Below are positions 5,888 to 52,090 of a stretch of 64,000 nucleotides of DNA, piece by piece. The translations under genes and the position numbers were made by a program. Origin of the DNA: a virus (lineage: Duplodnaviria > Heunggongvirae > Uroviricota > Caudoviricetes). Under the pieces are notes generated by a model. It ran no database searches, was not told where the DNA came from, and worked only from the letters and a program-made list of their open reading frames with translations. The stretch lies in the IMG/VR virus record IMGVR_UViG_3300027804_000053. One strand, given 5' to 3'. Position 1 is the first letter of the stretch. Every line of letters starts with the position of its first letter.

Positions 5888-6509
5888 TAGATTTTCGGTA
5901 AAGTACTTTCTTATCAAATCCTTTTTCCGATAGTAAATTCAATAAATATTTTTTTTGAGCTGTTGAATTGTCTTTTACAACCAAACAATCCTTTTTGTTA
6001 TTTTTTTGGAAGTGAATGGTGAGACAGTCCAAAAATCTATGGACTTCGCTCTCGTTTTTTAAACTGAAAAGTTTACAGTCATCATCATTTTGTACAACAA
6101 CCTTATTGTTCAAAGAGGAAATCATTTTGAGCCCTGTACCTCTAAGATTTTTTTGAATAAACTCTTGAATGGTAATTTTTTTGTTCTGACCAATATCAAA
6201 AATTTTTTCTTCTTTTCTGTATAAAGAAATCTCTGAAATAGTTTTACCTGAGTTTTCAAGTTTAACCTTTTTACTCCTACCCATTTCATCTGTCAAATAA
6301 ACAGGAATAAGTTTAGTGTGGGAGTTCTCAACAATAGCAATTTCATACTTACAACTTTTACCATTTTCTATAATCACTTCGAATATAACATCATTTGTTT
6401 CTTTTAGGACAGTATCATAAAAGTTCTTTGCATTTTTAAAAGTAACAAATTCCTTTAGAATTTTTTTTGATGTTTTATCCTTGAATAAGACTACGGAATA
6501 ATTTACCAT
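5871..6509 (-). CDS. hypothetical protein
   Basis: 212-aa ORF with ATG verified (cat at 6507-6509). Divergent from the dnaJ-like gene. Confidence 0.5.
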   Translation of the reverse strand: MVNYSVVLFKDKTSKKILKEFVTFKNAKNFYDTVLKETNDVIFEVIIENGKSCKYEIAIVENSHTKLIPVYLTDEMGRSKKVKLENSGKTISEISLYRKEEKIFDIGQNKKITIQEFIQKNLRGTGLKMISSLNNKVVVQNDDDCKLFSLKNESEVHRFLDCLTIHFQKNNKKDCLVVKDNSTAQKKYLLNLLSEKGFDKKVLYRKSTTHPR

Positions 6510-32611: not shown

Positions 32612-32907
32612 TGGCAAAAAAAATTGTAAGACTAACCGAAGGTGACTTAATTAATCTTGTAAAAAGGGTTATCTCTGAACAAAAAAAATTCGAACTATTC
32701 ATGAATCCTGGTCAAACAGCTGAGGCAGAATTGATTGGAGACATATTGACTATTTTTTCTCAAATGGGGAAAGACCAAATCTTTAAAGTAAAAACATCTT
32801 TACCAAAAGGTAAATTTATGTTTGAATTTTCAAAAGATGGAAAATATTACGGGTACGATAAGAGAGGGAAAAAACATGAAATCCTTTTGATAGAAAAAAG
32901 AAAATGA
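32611..32907 (+). CDS. hypothetical protein
   Basis: ORF track. Start overlaps the upstream stop. Confidence 0.4.
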   Translation: MAKKIVRLTEGDLINLVKRVISEQKKFELFMNPGQTAEAELIGDILTIFSQMGKDQIFKVKTSLPKGKFMFEFSKDGKYYGYDKRGKKHEILLIEKRK

Positions 32908-34328
32908 AAAAACTATTAAAAGAGTCTGGTTTAAGAGATATTTCGGCTTTGAGGAAAAGATACCCAAAAGCCGAAATTTATTTTCACCTTGACCTTGATG
33001 GGGTGACCACCGCAATTGCAATGAAAAAATACCTTGAGGACAATGGTATCAAGGTCGTTGGAGCACATACCATTCAATATGGGGACAAGGAATTTGCAGT
33101 TAAAAAGTTGGATGCTGAAGGTGATACAATGCCAGTGCTCGTAGATTTCGCACACGGTAAACCGATGTTTGTTATTCATACTGACCACCACGATAGGCAG
33201 GTTGGTGCAGAACCTGAGGCTTCTAAATCATTCAGACAAGCCCGTTCGAACGTTGAAACAATATCTCAAATTGTTTCACCTAAGGAAATATTTCCAACCG
33301 CTGATATACTTTTAATCAGTACTGTAGACTCAGCTAACTTTTTGAAACATGAAATCACACCAGAGGATGTTGTAAATTATATCTTTAGATTAGATAAAGA
33401 TAAGACCCTTCAGAAAAATAAAATGTTACTTGGGTTGGTTATCAACAAACTGATTTTAGCTTTCAAAAACCGAAAAGGGTTTATGGAGAGTTTGGTTATG
33501 GACTCAGAACCCTCCCTCATGTCTATTTTCAATAACATCAAGAAATGGATGAAAATGACAAGTGCTGAAGACTTCGCTACTCTCCAACAGAGGTCCGATG
33601 ATTACTTGGAACAAATGAAAAAATATCCCAAGGTAAGAGTAGAAGACGGAATAATTTTTCAGTATGGTGCGGGAAGTATGAAGTCAGGTTCTTACGATAG
33701 ATACACTCCTTTCAGAGTAAATCCGAATGCGGACTTTTTAATTCTAATGTGGCCGATGGGACTTTTACAAGTCTCATGTAACCCTTTCAAAAAAGATAGA
33801 AAGTTGAAAGGAGTTAATTTGGGAGAGATGGCTCAGGACGTTCTGAAACCTTTTGAAAGCCAACTCAAATCAAGAACAATCCCCCTTTCGACAATCAAAT
33901 GGTTAAGTGAAATATCAACCAAACCAGGTGATGTTGGATTTACATTCAAAGACTTCAATGCCCTTTTCGGTGGTAAAATTGCATTTATTGATGGGGGTAA
34001 CGAAATTTTAGATAGAATAAAACCCATGATGGACAAACCTTTTTCAGAACTCAAAGAAGAAGAAAAACAACTTTTGGACAAGATTGGAATTAATATGTGG
34101 GATTTTATTCAATCTAACTCAGGAGGACACAAGTGTATCACGAATATTTCAGGTCTAAATTTTCTTGGAAGAAAGACAAGACCATCAGAGGACCCATACA
34201 GATACGACCCTGACAAGCCAGATGTTCCGTATATTAAATTCATGAAACAACTCGGAACAAAATTTTTCAATATACTGAAAGAAAAAATTCAAGAGGAACA
34301 ACAAAAAGAAAAAGAAGTGTCAAATTAA
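32904..34328 (+). CDS. DHH-family phosphoesterase (NrnA/RecJ-like)
   Basis: HLDLDGVTTAIAM (DHH motif I, DxDGxxS/T). VDFAHG. HTDHHD (DHH motif III). 474 aa, consistent with DHH plus DHHA1 architecture. Confidence 0.6.
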   Translation: MKKLLKESGLRDISALRKRYPKAEIYFHLDLDGVTTAIAMKKYLEDNGIKVVGAHTIQYGDKEFAVKKLDAEGDTMPVLVDFAHGKPMFVIHTDHHDRQVGAEPEASKSFRQARSNVETISQIVSPKEIFPTADILLISTVDSANFLKHEITPEDVVNYIFRLDKDKTLQKNKMLLGLVINKLILAFKNRKGFMESLVMDSEPSLMSIFNNIKKWMKMTSAEDFATLQQRSDDYLEQMKKYPKVRVEDGIIFQYGAGSMKSGSYDRYTPFRVNPNADFLILMWPMGLLQVSCNPFKKDRKLKGVNLGEMAQDVLKPFESQLKSRTIPLSTIKWLSEISTKPGDVGFTFKDFNALFGGKIAFIDGGNEILDRIKPMMDKPFSELKEEEKQLLDKIGINMWDFIQSNSGGHKCITNISGLNFLGRKTRPSEDPYRYDPDKPDVPYIKFMKQLGTKFFNILKEKIQEEQQKEKEVSN

Positions 34329-34600
34329 AAATGATACTCAACCCAATCGCCGGGTTCTATACCAACAGTATCACAATAACCTCCCGGTAACTCCAAAACA
34401 ATATTTCCATTTCCACAATATGTTGGACAAGGGTCTTCATCGCAAGGAGGACAATCAGAGTGAATATTAACAATTACATTATTTTTTATCATTATGATAT
34501 CTAAGGGTATAATACAATTTTTCATCCAAAAACATTGTTTGTTCCCACTCATCAAAAATAAAAGAGCTTCAAAGTCTTTATTGAAAGTTTTACCCATCAT
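34325..34600 (-). CDS. small Cys-rich hypothetical protein
   Basis: ATG pair at 34595-34600 (MMGKTF...). Contains CPPCDEDPCPTYCGNGN. The track's longer ORF would run into the Nudix start. Confidence 0.4.
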   Translation of the reverse strand: MMGKTFNKDFEALLFLMSGNKQCFWMKNCIIPLDIIMIKNNVIVNIHSDCPPCDEDPCPTYCGNGNIVLELPGGYCDTVGIEPGDWVEYHF

Positions 34601-34686
34601 CCCAATTGCTTGAGATTTTTTATCGGTTAGAACTTTTGTTTTAAAAATATTTTTGTTAATTTTGACAAACACAATAATAAATACAA

Positions 34687-35106
34687 ATGGAATCAAAAAG
34701 ATACGCTGGCGTTTTAGTGAAATGTGGAGACGAAGTTCTCCTTTGCAAAAGAAATAACTTGGGGTCTTTCCCTGGTATGTGGTCAATACCAGGTGGAAAG
34801 ATGGAGGAAGGTGAAAACTCTCAAGATAGTGCGAAAAGAGAGTTTGTGGAAGAAACTGCCGTGGACATTTCAGATAGAAACATAAAGTTCATCGGACTTC
34901 TTCCGAGACACACAAGAGACGGAAAAAAAGTGAAAGGGATGATGTACGTTTATCAACTTGATACCGACCAGCCAATTGAACCTGACTTTTCCGTAGCAAA
35001 AGATGGTGAAGAACACACTGAATGGAAATACTTTAAATTAGATGAGATTGATTTTGGACAGTGTGGTGAATATATGTATAAACTTATTGAAATCGTACTA
35101 CAATGA
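34687..35106 (+). CDS. Nudix hydrolase
   Basis: Nudix box GGKMEEGENSQDSAKREFVEETAV follows Gx5Ex7REUxEExGU, with A in place of the last G. Confidence 0.7.
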   Translation: MESKRYAGVLVKCGDEVLLCKRNNLGSFPGMWSIPGGKMEEGENSQDSAKREFVEETAVDISDRNIKFIGLLPRHTRDGKKVKGMMYVYQLDTDQPIEPDFSVAKDGEEHTEWKYFKLDEIDFGQCGEYMYKLIEIVLQ

Positions 35107-35207: not shown

Positions 35208-35340
35208 TTTTCCGAAACTTGGAGATATTTATATGTTCTTATCCGAAAGGATGAACATCCCCAACATGAGAACTGAAGAAACTGAGAAGTTTCAATAAAA
35301 TCGGTCCTCACGAGATGAATGAAGCAGTAATCTCAAAAAA

Positions 35341-35397
35341 AAAGTCCCACAAAATTTGGAAGTTAAATTATCTCACCTTATTTTTGTGGGACTTTAT
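35341..35397 (+). terminator. long-stem hairpin terminator-like element
   Basis: AAAGTCCCACAAAA ... TTTTGTGGGACTTT is a 13-bp inverted repeat followed by TATTAT. Confidence 0.4.
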
Positions 35398-35489
35398 TAT
35401 CAAAGTAGTTCTTTAACATACTTCTACTCAAGGTTCAACCAGAGCATGACTTGGATGGTGACACGGGGACTTGGGTAGTTTTATTATAT

Positions 35490-35562
35490 CGCATGGTAGT
35501 AGCAGCGGTAGCTCGCCAGGCTCATAACCTGGAGGTCGTCAGTTCGATTCTGACCCATGCAA
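35490..35562 (+). tRNA. tRNA-Met (anticodon CAU), initiator-like
   Basis: Hand-folded cloverleaf. Acceptor CGCATGG/CCATGCA with C1xA72 mismatch. Anticodon stem CCAGG/CCTGG with loop CTCATAA. Variable loop AGGTC. T arm GTCAG-TTCGATT-CTGAC. Discriminator A. The D arm is non-canonical (3 bp AGC/GCT, loop AGCGGTA). CCA is not encoded. Confidence 0.55.
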
Positions 35563-35569
35563 CGAAAAA

Positions 35570-36580
35570 AAAAGTTTTATAAAAATTTGACGAATTGAAA
35601 AGTTCTTCTTAATTTTGTAAGACAGTTGAAGGAAAAGGGTTGTAAAGTTCCTTACCGAAGTCGGGGGTTGTAAAAAATTTCCACTCTCCTTCAATACTTG
35701 ATAGTTCTTTGTTTTAAGATATTGGCCGCCTATGGTCATTAAATAAACTACGAAAGTAGTATAAAGTGGGACACCAGGTTTTAGTGTTCTGCGGTATCAA
35801 AGGGGTACTCGAGTAGGCAATCAGGATATGTTCTGACCTTTAGTACTGAGGGTAACACTGTAGGGAAAGTGGTTGGAATACGGGGCGATACGGGTCGTCT
35901 CGTTGAGGTCGGAAGACTAATAAGAATAACCTGAGGAATCTATGTGAGAAATTATGGCTTCCACCATAGTCATCACGTAATTCAATATGAAAGTTGACTT
36001 AAAACCGAAAGGTAAGTTGATGTACAGGTGGTGCTGTTATTAACCTTGAAACGTCTCTACCAAGAGCGTATCACTGAAGTTGACTTGAAGTATGGAGGTC
36101 GGGAGACTTCAGAGAGTAGTTTAGTATCGTGTCGTTCAAAAGGCGACACGGCTGGTGACAGACCGCTACTTTCCACATCCGTAAACCAACCCTTAATTGT
36201 TAATTCTGGTTTAACAACTTATAATTAAAATCAAGGAAAAGTGTCTGTCAGTCGTTGGAAACAGGTGACTACATAGTCTTGAGATGTTCATGACCGTGTT
36301 GGGTCCCAAGCCCTTCACGATTTTCACGAAAGTTCTCTATTCCCGCAAGGAAGAATTGGGGTGGCAACCTCGAAGAGTGATGAGTAAGGAGAGAGTATTC
36401 AACGATTTAAGGATTGGTTAATCTAATTGACCGTCACTGAGAGTTACTGTTCAAAAGACAGTGGAAACGGAGGGAATAAATAATCCTTCTAAAGATTCTC
36501 AACAAAGCTTGTATTCTCAGAGTTTTTTGCCTGACCCTGACCGTCTCTACGGTTGGGGTTTTTTGTTTTTTGAAGTATTT
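35570..36580 (+). ncRNA. candidate large structured non-coding RNA (~1 kb) immediately downstream of the tRNA
   Basis: No credible ORF. The only one listed (36028..36228) has no start context. G+C visibly higher than the flanks. Many local hairpins (e.g. CGTGTCG-ttcaaaag-CGACACG, GACTAcaTAGTC). Ends in ACCGT-ctct-ACGGT-TGGGG-T6-G-T6, a terminator-like element, at ~36540-36580. Confidence 0.4.
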
Positions 36581-36595
36581 ATAAGAAAAAATACG

Positions 36596-37636
36596 ATGTA
36601 CATAAAAAAACTTTCGCCTCAGGAGGCTTTAGAAACAATCAAATTGAGAATGAATTATGATTCATCAAAAACTTTGAACGAAAATAAGTTGATAGTCCTC
36701 GAACAAAAAGCCAATCTCACAACAAACCAACAAGCAGCATTAACTCAAGGTTTTGGTCCTGTGACAGCCAAAGCAGCTGACGATTTAGCTAAACAGGGAA
36801 AGTTGAAAACAAACACATTAAAATCTGTTTTTGGGGGCACTCAAACTCCTACCTCCGCGGTTGATACAAGTACCGCTAACAAACAAACCTCTGACACAGG
36901 AGTTGGAAAAGCTATACAACAAGGTGTTCAAGCGGCAAACCTCAAAATAGATGTATCTTGTATTGGATTCAACGGTGAAGAATATAAAGAAATCACAACA
37001 GCTTTAGTAAGCTCTGACGGCATTGGAAAACCGGTTCACGTTTGGAGATTTTGGCCTGACGGAAAAGCAATATATGTCGAAAGTGGGGATAAGTACAAGT
37101 ATACATACAAATGTAGTAAAACTAAACCTGGTGTTGTTGAAATAACAGATGTTGATTCTTCAGAAGTGGATGAATACAAATTATTTGATAAGAAAAATTC
37201 ACAAACAGTTGCCCCTAAAAAAGCTGTTCCAATTCCATCAGAATTGAAAGACATCGAGGGTGTAAAAAAATTCCAAGATTGGTTAGATAAAAACCATGAG
37301 GGTTGGCATGACAAATACAAAGTTCTGAATGGTAGCGTCCCTAAAGGTTATGGTAAATTTGGTCCGAGAACAAATAAATGGTGGAAACTTCAAAGGGTAA
37401 ATTATCTTAATTCATCTCCTACTACAAATACAACAACTTCATCAAAAGTAGATACAACACAATCTCAATCTTCCACGAAAATTGATACAACTCCACCTAA
37501 AGCTCAAATCCCAAGCGCATCTAAAGGTTTCCAAAAGTTCGCACAATCACAATTTGGTGCAAACTCTCAACCTTCTAATTCTGAAACCACAACAAAACCA
37601 ACTACAAGGGTTGCAAGTGCAGACACCGAATTCTAA
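36596..37636 (+). CDS. Thr/Ser/Gln-rich hypothetical protein
   Basis: ATG at 36596 (MYIKKLSPQEA...). The track's GTG at 36461 lies inside the structured region. Low-complexity T/S-rich C-terminal third. Confidence 0.45.
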   Translation: MYIKKLSPQEALETIKLRMNYDSSKTLNENKLIVLEQKANLTTNQQAALTQGFGPVTAKAADDLAKQGKLKTNTLKSVFGGTQTPTSAVDTSTANKQTSDTGVGKAIQQGVQAANLKIDVSCIGFNGEEYKEITTALVSSDGIGKPVHVWRFWPDGKAIYVESGDKYKYTYKCSKTKPGVVEITDVDSSEVDEYKLFDKKNSQTVAPKKAVPIPSELKDIEGVKKFQDWLDKNHEGWHDKYKVLNGSVPKGYGKFGPRTNKWWKLQRVNYLNSSPTTNTTTSSKVDTTQSQSSTKIDTTPPKAQIPSASKGFQKFAQSQFGANSQPSNSETTTKPTTRVASADTEF

Positions 37637-37693: not shown

Positions 37694-38257
37694 TTGTATC
37701 ATAAAAGAAAAGATATGTTTGACAAACTCATTGACCTAATCGTTACTTTTATTAATGACATTTTACCTTGGAAAATCGTAGACCAATGGGAACAAGGAGT
37801 TCATCTTAGAACCGGAAAGTTTCTGAGAGTAGTTCTTCCTGGTTTGAACTGGAAAATCCCTTTTTTTGACCAAATTTTAACTACTCCTGTCATTACCCAA
37901 ACGGTAAACTTAAAACCTCAAACGGTGACATCCTTGGATGAAAAAAGTGTCGTTCTTTCGAGTATTGTCCGTTATCACATTGATGACGTTGAAAAATTTC
38001 TCTTGGGCGTAATGCACGCGAATGATGTTTTAATTGATACAACACAAGGTATTATTCGAGACGTGGTAGAAAGCTCAAATTGGAGTGACCTTTATGAACT
38101 TGGTAACACCGTTACACCGGCTGTTAATAATGAAGTTGAAAAGTGGGGTATTGTGGTGGAACAAATAAGCTTTCCTGATTTAGGAGAAATTGTAACTTAT
38201 AGAATTATGGGAGACTCTTATAAAAATCCATCAGGAATTTTGCCGGTAATGGAATAA
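37694..38257 (+). CDS. SPFH/band-7 (stomatin/prohibitin/HflKC-like) domain protein
   Basis: VHLRTGKFLRVVLPGLNWKIPFFDQILTTPVITQTVNL ... SIVRYHIDDVEKF ... WGIVVEQISFPD follows the SPFH core pattern. Confidence 0.5.
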   Translation: MYHKRKDMFDKLIDLIVTFINDILPWKIVDQWEQGVHLRTGKFLRVVLPGLNWKIPFFDQILTTPVITQTVNLKPQTVTSLDEKSVVLSSIVRYHIDDVEKFLLGVMHANDVLIDTTQGIIRDVVESSNWSDLYELGNTVTPAVNNEVEKWGIVVEQISFPDLGEIVTYRIMGDSYKNPSGILPVME

Positions 38258-50685: not shown

Positions 50686-50885
50686 ACCTTCACGGGTTTC
50701 TTCATCACGATGTAGAGTTGGAAGTTAAGAATTTTTTGTTCTTAAATGAACCAAAATTTCCTGTTAAAATCATCACTGGTAAGTCTGATAAAATGAGCCA
50801 GTTGGTTGTAGACATTTTGAGAAAAAATGGTTATAATTTTGAGGTCCCTGCACACAATTCTGGGGAAATAATTGTTTATTACTGA
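50673..50885 (+). CDS. Smr-domain protein
   Basis: LDLHGFLHHDVELEV...KIITGKSD matches the Smr LDLHG...IHGKG pattern. 70 aa. Confidence 0.5.
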   Translation: MEKLDLHGFLHHDVELEVKNFLFLNEPKFPVKIITGKSDKMSQLVVDILRKNGYNFEVPAHNSGEIIVYY

Positions 50886-52090
50886 TGGAAAATAAAAAGA
50901 TTGGTATTGTAGACTGTAACAATTTCTATGTAAGTTGCGAAAGAGTATTTAATCCCGTATCAATCGGAAAACCAACTGTCGTATTATCAAACAACGATGG
51001 ATGTGTAATTGCACGTTCGCAAGAAGCTAAAGACCTCGGAATAAAGATGGGTGAACCATTCTTCCAAAAAAAGGATTTTATGGAAGAACACAGGTTCTGT
51101 GTATATTCTTCTAATTACAATCTATACGGAGATATGTCAGACCGAGTAATGACGGTCATAAAAAAGTATGCGAATGAAGTTGAAGTGTATTCAATTGATG
51201 AATGTTTTGTCGATTTCTCGAACATCCCATCAGAAGAGTTGTTAGACCGACTACACCTAATAAGAAATGAAGTTAAAAGACTTACAGGTATTCCCGTTTC
51301 AATTGGAGTAGGACCAAATAAAACTTTAGCTAAACTAACTTCACACATTGCAAAAAAACAACCATCATATGATGGGGTTTGTTCTTATTGGAATTTACAA
51401 AATTTTAGAAATTCACTTTATAATATTTCAGTTGACGAAGTTTGGGGGATTGGTAGAAAGTGGTCAAAGAAATTAAAAATGATTGGTGTTGAAAGTATCG
51501 GTCAATTTGTTATGTTGAATGATGGACTTGTTAGAAAAATGATGAATGTGAACGGTCTAAAAACAAAAATGGAAATCCTTGGAATGTATTGTCATCCCAT
51601 TCAACCTGTCCCAAAATTAAAAAGAAATGTGGCCTCGACACGTTCGTTTGGACAGGACATTGATTCTTTTGACCAAATTGCGGAGGCTATGTATTCATAT
51701 GTTAAAAACGGAGTTAAAAAATTGGAAGATAATGGAATATCTCCAAATAGAGCAACCATTTTCATGGCAGGTAATAAACACAAGGATGAAAAACATTATT
51801 CGAGTAGACAAATATTATTTCAACAACAAACCCGAGATATAAATCAAATTTGGTCTCAAATTTATCCACACCTTAAAAAAATGTTTAAAAACGGAAAAAG
51901 GTATAAAAAATGTGGAATTATATTCAATGAATTAATGCCTGAGAATGTTGAACAGGCAACATTGTTTTCAAGTTCAATACAAATTGTTCAACCACCTGTA
52001 AATGTTGAAAAGAATTGGGAAATGAGACAGGAGTTTATTTCACAGAAGTTTACGACAGATTGGGATGAAATTCCAAAAGTATTTGTATGA
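50885..52090 (+). CDS. umuC: Y-family DNA polymerase, UmuC-like
   Basis: IGIVDCNNFYVSCERVFNP is the UmuC/DinB N-terminal signature. 401 aa. Start overlaps the Smr stop (TGATG). Confidence 0.75.
   Translation: MENKKIGIVDCNNFYVSCERVFNPVSIGKPTVVLSNNDGCVIARSQEAKDLGIKMGEPFFQKKDFMEEHRFCVYSSNYNLYGDMSDRVMTVIKKYANEVEVYSIDECFVDFSNIPSEELLDRLHLIRNEVKRLTGIPVSIGVGPNKTLAKLTSHIAKKQPSYDGVCSYWNLQNFRNSLYNISVDEVWGIGRKWSKKLKMIGVESIGQFVMLNDGLVRKMMNVNGLKTKMEILGMYCHPIQPVPKLKRNVASTRSFGQDIDSFDQIAEAMYSYVKNGVKKLEDNGISPNRATIFMAGNKHKDEKHYSSRQILFQQQTRDINQIWSQIYPHLKKMFKNGKRYKKCGIIFNELMPENVEQATLFSSSIQIVQPPVNVEKNWEMRQEFISQKFTTDWDEIPKVFV

Follow-up and report, generated by a model that had tools for sequence, protein, structure and literature searches.

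The stretch of DNA analysed here, 64,000 nt from a virus of the class Caudoviricetes (IMG/VR record IMGVR_UViG_3300027804_000053), will be referred to as the window. Positions 35722-36523 of its plus strand represent a full-length gene of the GOLLD RNA, of the two-domain type known from env-38; the probability of this explanation, taken as a whole, is estimated at about 0.85. GOLLD is among the few natural RNAs known to form a closed cage without protein. The family (RF02032) was reportedly first described by Weinberg et al. in Nature in 2009. Membership of this family, a covarying secondary structure in two domains, the motifs of all ten bridges of the env-38 cage and the absence of coding potential were established computationally. 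The locus is a further member of a known family, and the kind of element is in itself not new. Its rRNA-style leader and its pairing with an initiator-type tRNA are modest new leads: neither GOLLD together with boxA nor GOLLD linked with an initiator tRNA was found in the searchable literature, the original description of 2009 lying outside that search.

Family membership, fold and cage-contact motifs

A preliminary description of the window had pointed to about 1 kb lacking a credible open reading frame (ORF) downstream of a tRNA gene and richer in G+C than its flanks. It had suggested a large structured non-coding RNA resembling GOLLD or ROOL, to be checked with Rfam. The Rfam scan of the whole window comes out on the GOLLD side: RF02032 matches 36112-36523 of the plus strand over its entire length (model positions 1-416 of 416) with 324.5 bits and an E value of 3.6e-92, a score of twice the gathering threshold of 150. 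The covariance model of RF02032 covers the conserved 3' half of GOLLD only. For the 5' half, the sequence of env-38 (JCVI_SCAF_1096627009515/1239-410, PDB 9MEE), as given in the supplementary material of Kretsch et al. (Nature 2025, PMC12286853), served for comparison. Of the 816 residues that were read, those from 4 to 813 align to 35723-36520 of the window, in the absence of large gaps and at an approximate identity of 66%; the env-38 text from the PDF is about 17 bases short (816 versus 833). The GOLLD core was accordingly set at about 35722-36523, which amounts to 802 nt.

The surroundings were also as first described. Between 35107 and 36460 (1354 nt) there is no ORF of at least 70 aa on either strand. 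This is the largest such gap in the window, and the next one measures 438 nt. The region is bounded by a NUDIX gene with its small downstream ORF (ending at 35106 and 35207, respectively) on one side and by the ATG at 36596, likely the start of the next gene, on the other; between these it holds one tRNA gene, called by both ARAGORN and Rfam, and no credible ORF. The G+C content of the core is 0.42, versus 0.361 for the whole window and 0.30-0.36 for the flanks. The 1-kb span can be resolved into a promoter with leader (35587-35721), the GOLLD core and an intrinsic terminator, the last of which had already been recognized as a hairpin followed by a T-run (Table 1).

Relatives were collected by fetching viral contigs with a 16-base GOLLD motif, which gave at least 120 loci; all counts of relatives in this text are among the matches listed. 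More than 100 of 120 fetched contigs proved homologous to the region by nhmmer. The whole 802-nt core is covered by 86 contigs, with 75 distinct full-length sequences of 780-836 nt and 58-84% identity to the window. A blastn search of GenBank phages yielded no close relative; it matched nothing beyond the tRNA and, in huge uncultured phages, short stretches of the GOLLD 3' domain. In the phages CcrBL9 and Bajun (L242 and L243 among our loci) no GOLLD match at the Rfam gathering score was found.

The window and its relatives were aligned with MAFFT (76 sequences), and pairing was compared with a control in which the 3' partners were slid by 1-3 columns. For the 3' domain, taken with the Rfam structure, 94.3% of the cells are paired versus 40-46% in the slid control, and 75 of the 93 pairs have changes on both sides. 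For the 5' domain, RNAalifold proposed 116 pairs: 95.6% of the cells are paired versus 36-43%, with both-side changes in 91 pairs. Circularity was checked for this domain by deriving the structure from every second sequence. This gave 95.4% pairing in the other half of the sequences, double changes in 89 of 112 pairs and 94.6% pairing in the window alone. In both domains together, 166 pairs have changed on both sides. Conservation and covariation in relatives, on which the preliminary description had made its proposal depend, are thus strong in more than 75 sequences.

The two local hairpins that had been singled out earlier fared differently. The stem CGTGTCG/CGACACG is real (36128-36150) and covaries strongly in the 76 sequences; its loop, however, is TTCAAAAGG, one base longer than the ttcaaaag first given. 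From its place where the 3' domain begins, it is taken to be P14. The hairpin GACTA-ca-TAGTC (36267-36278) could not be upheld: its outer pairs form in only 21 and 49 of the 76 sequences, compensatory changes are absent, and the Rfam model leaves GACUA unpaired. The linker that interrupts the 3' domain varies in length from 57 to 84 nt in the relatives. Its 3' end (G36235 and G36236) pairs with a hairpin loop of the 3' domain (L20 with J13/15), which constitutes bridge B7.

By cryo-EM, env-38 is a 14-mer cage of D7 symmetry with a disordered linker pointing inside (PMC12286853). The residues of its inter-chain bridges B1-B10 were taken from Supplementary Table 2 of Kretsch et al., anchored in the env-38 sequence by residue identities and carried over to the window; B4a and B1b failed automatic anchoring, and B4a was placed by hand. 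At the level of the sequence, the motifs of all ten bridges were located, with core bases that vary little or not at all across the 76 sequences. The B7 pair 36306:36236 can form in 76 of 76, as G:C in 42 and as C:G in 34, and so can its neighbor C36307:G36235. In B4 a swap from T:A to C:G is found in two sequences.

The window RNA resembles env-38 in its size class (~800-830 nt), its 5' domain, which can be aligned although it is the less conserved one, the ten bridge motifs, the A+U-rich internal linker and its location downstream of a tRNA-Met gene, env-38 likewise lying downstream of a Met-tRNA (PMC12286853). It differs in length (802 versus 833 nt), in several stems that are altered by compensatory changes, and in the hairpin that bears the conserved GAAA loop, which is shorter in the window (CCGAAAGG versus GGGGAAACCCC in env-38) and is taken to be L11a. 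The GOLLD of Streptococcus agalactiae (PDB 9L0R) belongs to the same family and follows the same cage principle, but is a dodecamer and lacks P9, P11a-c and P21b (PMC12990946). From a comparison of the two papers, the GC-containing loops of B8 and B9 were equated with the kissing loops L21a and L21b, of which L21b is missing from the 12-mer. As the window keeps both, it would be nearer to env-38, and an env-38-like particle is expected. The window RNA would then assemble by itself, with no need of protein, into a closed homo-oligomeric cage that encloses the A+U-rich linker, and by its similarity to env-38 this cage is probably also a 14-mer. With RF02032 as defined in Rfam, the window shares the 3' domain and the phage context beside a tRNA; the promoter, the boxA leader and the initiator-tRNA pairing seen in the window are not part of that family definition.

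Promoter, leader and neighboring tRNA

TTG/TAnnTTTG is the consensus of the Bacteroidota housekeeping promoter. In the window, the pattern TTG-N18-20-TAnnTTTG has 15 matches, all on the plus strand, versus 4.6 +/- 2.1 on both strands in shuffled sequences. The matches are often situated just ahead of ORFs (26196, 34636, 37666, 38240, 41766 and 63373), and their distribution over the strands suggests mostly one-directional transcription. A scan with the sigma-70 consensus gave promoter-like sites no more often than expected by chance. The promoter pattern probably reflects a Bacteroidota host, with which the similarity of the window tRNA to tRNAs of Cellulophaga phages is in agreement. Predicted promoters of this type precede both GOLLD and the tRNA-Met gene. 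Transcription of GOLLD would start at a promoter of the host sigma-A type, pass the leader hairpin, the boxA-like motif and the RNA itself, and end at the intrinsic terminator. On this arrangement of signals, GOLLD would be a separate transcription unit of about 950 nt. Most relatives have a similar terminator or else a tRNA gene 8-18 nt past the 3' end of GOLLD, and the sequence beyond varies between the contigs.

In the 160 nt upstream of the 75 relatives a common order can be observed: an A-tract, TTGAC followed after ~19 nt by TAnnTTTG, a short hairpin and GTTCTTTGAA. Many relatives have an additional hairpin between GTTCTTTGAA and P1 of GOLLD. The distance from the end of the -7 element to the motif is typically 26-28 nt in the relatives and 86 nt in the window, whose hairpin is larger. 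The window hairpin contains two copies of GGGTTGTAAA, a direct repeat that had been noticed before. The repeat and the position of its first copy (35637-35646) are correct, whereas the second copy occupies 35665-35674 and does not begin at ~35674; both are located in the predicted transcribed leader, outside the GOLLD core. The layout of this leader (outer stem, UUGUAAAG(A/G)UU, small hairpin, U(U/C)GUAAAGAUU, outer stem) is kept in L046, L057, L017, L076, L006 and L011. L062 carries GGGTTGTAAA once, in a terminal loop; in the majority of the remaining relatives the hairpin is plain. Folded alone, the leader performs no better than shuffled sequences (z = -0.27), and no Rfam family was found for the leader or the GGGTTGTAAA repeats at E<=1.

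Downstream of the hairpin lies the motif GTTCTTTG. As GTTCTTT[GA]A (GTTCTTTGA) it occurs on the GOLLD strand at most 300 nt upstream of GOLLD, exactly in 70 of the 75 relatives and in all 75 with one mismatch. Its density upstream of GOLLD is 3.1 per kb versus 0.07 per kb elsewhere in the same loci, and the same promoter design precedes it in 57 of the 70 relatives with the exact motif. The window copy, GTTCTTTGT at 35704, is one base off, matching GTTCTTTGA at 8 of 9 positions. Between the motif and P1 there are 17-221 nt in the relatives, many of which have inserted hairpins here, and 17-20 nt in the window-type relatives. For gamma-proteobacteria, the boxA consensus derived by experiment is GYTCTTTAANA (PMC5725501). 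The GTTCTTTGA motif agrees with this gamma-proteobacterial consensus at 10 of 11 positions.

The same word is found in the rRNA operons of Bacteroidota. In 120 genomic loci with the Bacteroidota form of the 16S 5' end, GYTCTTTRA has 55 matches on the rRNA strand and one on the opposite strand at -300 to -50 of 16S. This corresponds to 2.05 per kb in the 16S leaders versus a background of 0.03-0.04 per kb, an enrichment of about 50-fold. Where a 16S locus has no exact match, a variant that differs by one base mostly occupies that spot. The motif is present again in the 16S-23S spacer, and a TTG/TAnnTTTG promoter is located upstream of it in 76 of 78 Bacteroidota rRNA loci. Among the fetched phage loci, it is enriched ~7-fold just upstream of tRNA and tmRNA genes.

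The motif is read here as an antitermination signal of the rrn boxA type, and the GOLLD leader as a whole (promoter, hairpin and GTTCTTTGA) would be a copy of the leader of the host rRNA operon. The boxB-boxA leader of rrn operons, on which NusB, NusE, NusA and NusG as well as SuhB act, likewise places a promoter, a hairpin and then the motif in front of a long, structured and untranslated RNA, and the 9-mer is common to Bacteroidota rRNA and to the GOLLD leaders of the relatives. Differently from rrn, the copies in the window stand in a phage, one before GOLLD and one before the tRNA. If the leader indeed copies that of the rRNA operon, recruitment of NusB/NusE and the rrn antitermination complex can be proposed. 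Such recruitment would shield the long untranslated GOLLD RNA from Rho and could aid its co-transcriptional folding in the manner of rRNA synthesis, and the phages would be placing a loading site for Nus factors ahead of their stable RNA genes.

The tRNA-Met gene ends 158 nt upstream of the GOLLD core. Its C1xA72 mismatch and the two G-C pairs beside the anticodon loop (G30-C40 and G31-C39, preceded by A29-U41) mark it as initiator-like. In the relatives, tRNA-Met genes on the GOLLD strand either precede the GOLLD promoter or follow the GOLLD 3' end after 8-18 nt. The tRNA nearest to GOLLD is a tRNA-Met in 35 of 55 cases, versus 28 of 412 for the other tRNAs of these loci (odds ratio 24, uncorrected for relatedness). 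Among 29 distinct adjacent tRNA-Met genes, positions 1 and 72 are mismatched in 25, whereas U1:A72 is found in three and a G:C pair of the elongator type in one; three G-C pairs are found in the anticodon stem of 8 and two in that of 17. Nearly all neighboring RNA genes (60 of 61) are on the GOLLD strand, and in many relatives GOLLD is situated in or beside a tRNA array. ARAGORN passed over some tRNA-like sequences that have a CAT anticodon loop and lie downstream or upstream of GOLLD (L026 at 6087-6160, L064 and L037), so that the tRNA-Met genes adjacent to GOLLD are at least as many as counted here.

Further small elements surround the tRNA genes. In the window, an inverted repeat, GTCCCACAAAA (35344-54) and TTTTGTGGGAC (35382-92), flanks the tRNA promoter, and the ~60-nt structured leader of tRNA-Met (35424-78) is common to L026, L046, L017, L062 and L057. 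Between tRNA-Met and the GOLLD promoter, L046, L062/L027, L017/L082 and L057 have a small conserved element containing AACCTGTCCCATTAAGAGTGGGGGGT, which is absent from the window and may be another small phage RNA. It has its own upstream boxA-like motif: GTTCTTTGA, or GATCTTTGA in L062/L027. A tmRNA gene is located directly upstream of GOLLD in several relatives and nearby in phiCbK and a Brevundimonas phage. Such genes directly beside GOLLD, often accompanied by tRNA-Met, were recorded for L005, L020, L029, L035/L103 and L043, and also for L241 (phiCbK) and L243 (Bajun). The tmRNA of these last two, which are alphaproteobacterial phages, is of the permuted type.

Alternative explanations and possible function

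A number of observations weigh against the explanation developed above. The mapping of env-38 residues rests on local sequence context, with ~17 bases lost from the PDF text, and the stoichiometry differs within the GOLLD family, the S. agalactiae cage being a 12-mer (PMC12990946). Of the three G-C pairs that initiators usually have, the window tRNA shows only two, and the statistics on tRNA-Met neighbors take the contigs without correction for relatedness. As to the leader, the window copy of the motif leaves the consensus of the relatives past position 8 (GTTCTTTGTTTT versus GTTCTTTGAAAA). The motif is moreover short and invariant, so that covariation cannot separate a boxA from a processing site or a part of the RNA fold. 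Finally, three T5-like Vibrio phages lack the gamma-proteobacterial boxA consensus in front of GOLLD, and no boxA-like sequence was seen upstream of GOLLD in the Caulobacter phage phiCbK. The leader is therefore not GOLLD-wide, and the claim is confined to the clade of Bacteroidota phages.

It is on these last points that the most serious alternative draws: GTTCTTTG could be a site at which an RNase processes the transcript, could dock or pair with another part of the mature GOLLD particle, or could act at the DNA level as a promoter-proximal element. The short distance to P1 in the window-type relatives would suit such roles as well, and yet they are considered unlikely. A fixed structural partner is difficult to reconcile with a spacing that extends over the full range seen in the relatives (17-221 nt). 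The same 9-mer is furthermore encountered at the same relative place, behind the same type of promoter and often after a hairpin, in the rRNA leaders and also in the 16S-23S spacers of Bacteroidota; it comes within one position of the gamma-proteobacterial boxA consensus, and it also precedes phage tRNA and tmRNA genes.

With the motif read as boxA, the GOLLD of Bacteroidota phages may tentatively be viewed as a miniature rRNA-like operon: a host housekeeping promoter, a hairpin, boxA and a structured RNA, with the initiator tRNA before it or directly after. For synthesis and folding of the cage, such an operon would depend on the Nus antitermination and RNA-chaperone complex of the host, and it would form one functional module with the initiator tRNA, acting on translation initiation in infected cells; as a complete picture this is doubtful. 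It is known that GOLLD expression rises at phage lysis and that GOLLD pulls down ribosomes (PMC12286853). Published ideas on its function are that the cage encloses the linker, or cargo such as tRNAs or ribosomes, and that it stores embedded tRNAs (PMC12286853, PMC12990946). From the rRNA-like signals, the initiator tRNA, the tmRNA and the tRNA arrays, translation appears with low confidence to be the most likely functional area. The best guess, a speculative one, is that the cage helps to take over or protect translation in the course of an infection.

Alternatively, the cage could serve the handling of tRNAs, storing or protecting those of the phage, rather than translation initiation as such. 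In phiCbK a tRNA-Gly is located within the GOLLD 3' domain, the linker of the Mycolicibacterium GOLLD holds a tRNA-Phe (PMC12990946), and the tRNA arrays around GOLLD in many relatives are in line with such a function. The window linker, however, contains no tRNA. The neighboring tRNA lies outside GOLLD in the window, where it has a predicted promoter of its own, and likewise in most relatives. Such handling of tRNAs is considered rather improbable.

The readings that deny the identity of the RNA have very little left to support them. Size and tRNA adjacency would also fit ROOL (RF03087), a large phage-associated RNA found near tRNA genes that likewise forms an RNA-only cage (PMC12286853), and the gene at 36596-37636 is on the same strand, which would suit a cis-acting 5' leader. 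The Rfam scan of the window at gathering scores nevertheless matched GOLLD and tRNA only; ROOL, group I and group II introns, RNase P RNA and tmRNA remained unmatched. At E<=1, the other matches in 35250-36650 were weak, far below threshold and from other families than these. ARAGORN found no tmRNA in the window. ROOL, the second candidate of the preliminary description, is unrelated to the window RNA in sequence and fold. A strong intrinsic terminator separates GOLLD from the gene at 36596-37636, and in the relatives GOLLD is followed by a terminator or a tRNA, past which the contigs differ. Another large RNA or a cis-acting leader is thus very improbable. The least tenable reading, a decayed or frameshifted protein gene, can draw on two overlapping 66-aa ORFs (36028-36228 on the plus strand, 35539-35739 on the minus strand), but is refuted for practical purposes by substitutions that preserve pairs, by the end-to-end Rfam match and by the lack of any conserved frame among the six frames of the relatives, where the longest stop-free stretch has a median of 76 aa.

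The locus adds nothing to the structure of the GOLLD family. It does bring a large set of relatives (at least 75 of full length) that apparently infect Bacteroidota, for which culturable phage-host systems exist, for example the Cellulophaga phages. If true, the rRNA-style leader would account for the escape of a long untranslated phage RNA from Rho, and possibly for its folding during transcription. The recurrent initiator-type tRNA-Met, together with the tmRNA in relatives, narrows the search for a function to translation, and both the leader and the tRNA pairing offer concrete handles for experiments.

Coordinates and other genes of the window

Table 1. Features of the GOLLD locus, in window coordinates
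Feature	Position	Strand	Basis and remarks
tRNA-Met promoter, TTG-N-TATTTTTG	35356-35386	+	Match to Bacteroidota-type pattern (candidate)
boxA-like motif GTTCTTTAACA in tRNA leader	35408-35418	+	11/11 to gamma-proteobacterial GYTCTTTAANA
tRNA-Met(CAT), initiator type	35490-35563	+	ARAGORN; Rfam tRNA, 51.9 bits; stem analysis
GOLLD promoter (predicted)	35587-35617	+	-33 TTG (35587-89); -7 TAATTTTG (35610-17); A9 tract upstream
Leader hairpin with two GGGTTGTAAA repeats	35625-35695	+	Predicted fold, outer stem 35625-33/35687-95; location like boxB in rrn leaders
boxA-like motif GTTCTTTGTTT	35704-35714	+	GTTCTTTG motif, 18 nt ahead of GOLLD P1
GOLLD 5' domain	35722-36111	+	env-38 alignment (residues 4 to ~420); RNAalifold covariation; forms the cage cap in env-38
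GOLLD 3' domain	36112-36523	+	Rfam RF02032; covariation; forms the cage ring in env-38
Variable A+U-rich linker	36174-36249	+	76 nt, 68% A+T; unpaired in Rfam model
Intrinsic terminator	36533-36570	+	12-bp stem 36533-36560 with 6 G-C pairs; T-run to 36570
Bridge B1	35752-55		GAAA loop
Bridge B2	35848-58		GAGGGUAACAC
Bridge B3	35911-14		GGAA loop
Bridge B4	U35959-C35962 with G36102-G36105		Loop-loop helix
Bridge B5	36028-33 and 36059-62		GUGGUG and ACCA
Bridge B6	36137-41		CAAAA loop of P14
Bridge B7	C36306/C36307 with G36236/G36235		
Bridge B8	36344-48		CGCAA loop
Bridge B9	36363-66		GGCA loop
Bridge B10	36452-57		CAAAAG loop

The remainder of the window provides a phage setting, with tail-fibre, methylase, NUDIX and Y-family polymerase genes. 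For the gene that follows GOLLD (36596-37636) no Pfam or PHROG match was found. The genes flanking the RNA region (32904-35106 and 37694-38257) encode a weakly DHH-like protein, the NUDIX hydrolase and an SPFH/Band-7 protein. Further along, 50885-52090 encodes a DNA polymerase of the Y family (UmuC-like). Between 13676 and 23302, three consecutive genes of ~1040-1110 aa have long collagen triple-helix repeats and a C-terminal endosialidase-chaperone domain (Peptidase_S74), and these are probably tail fibres.

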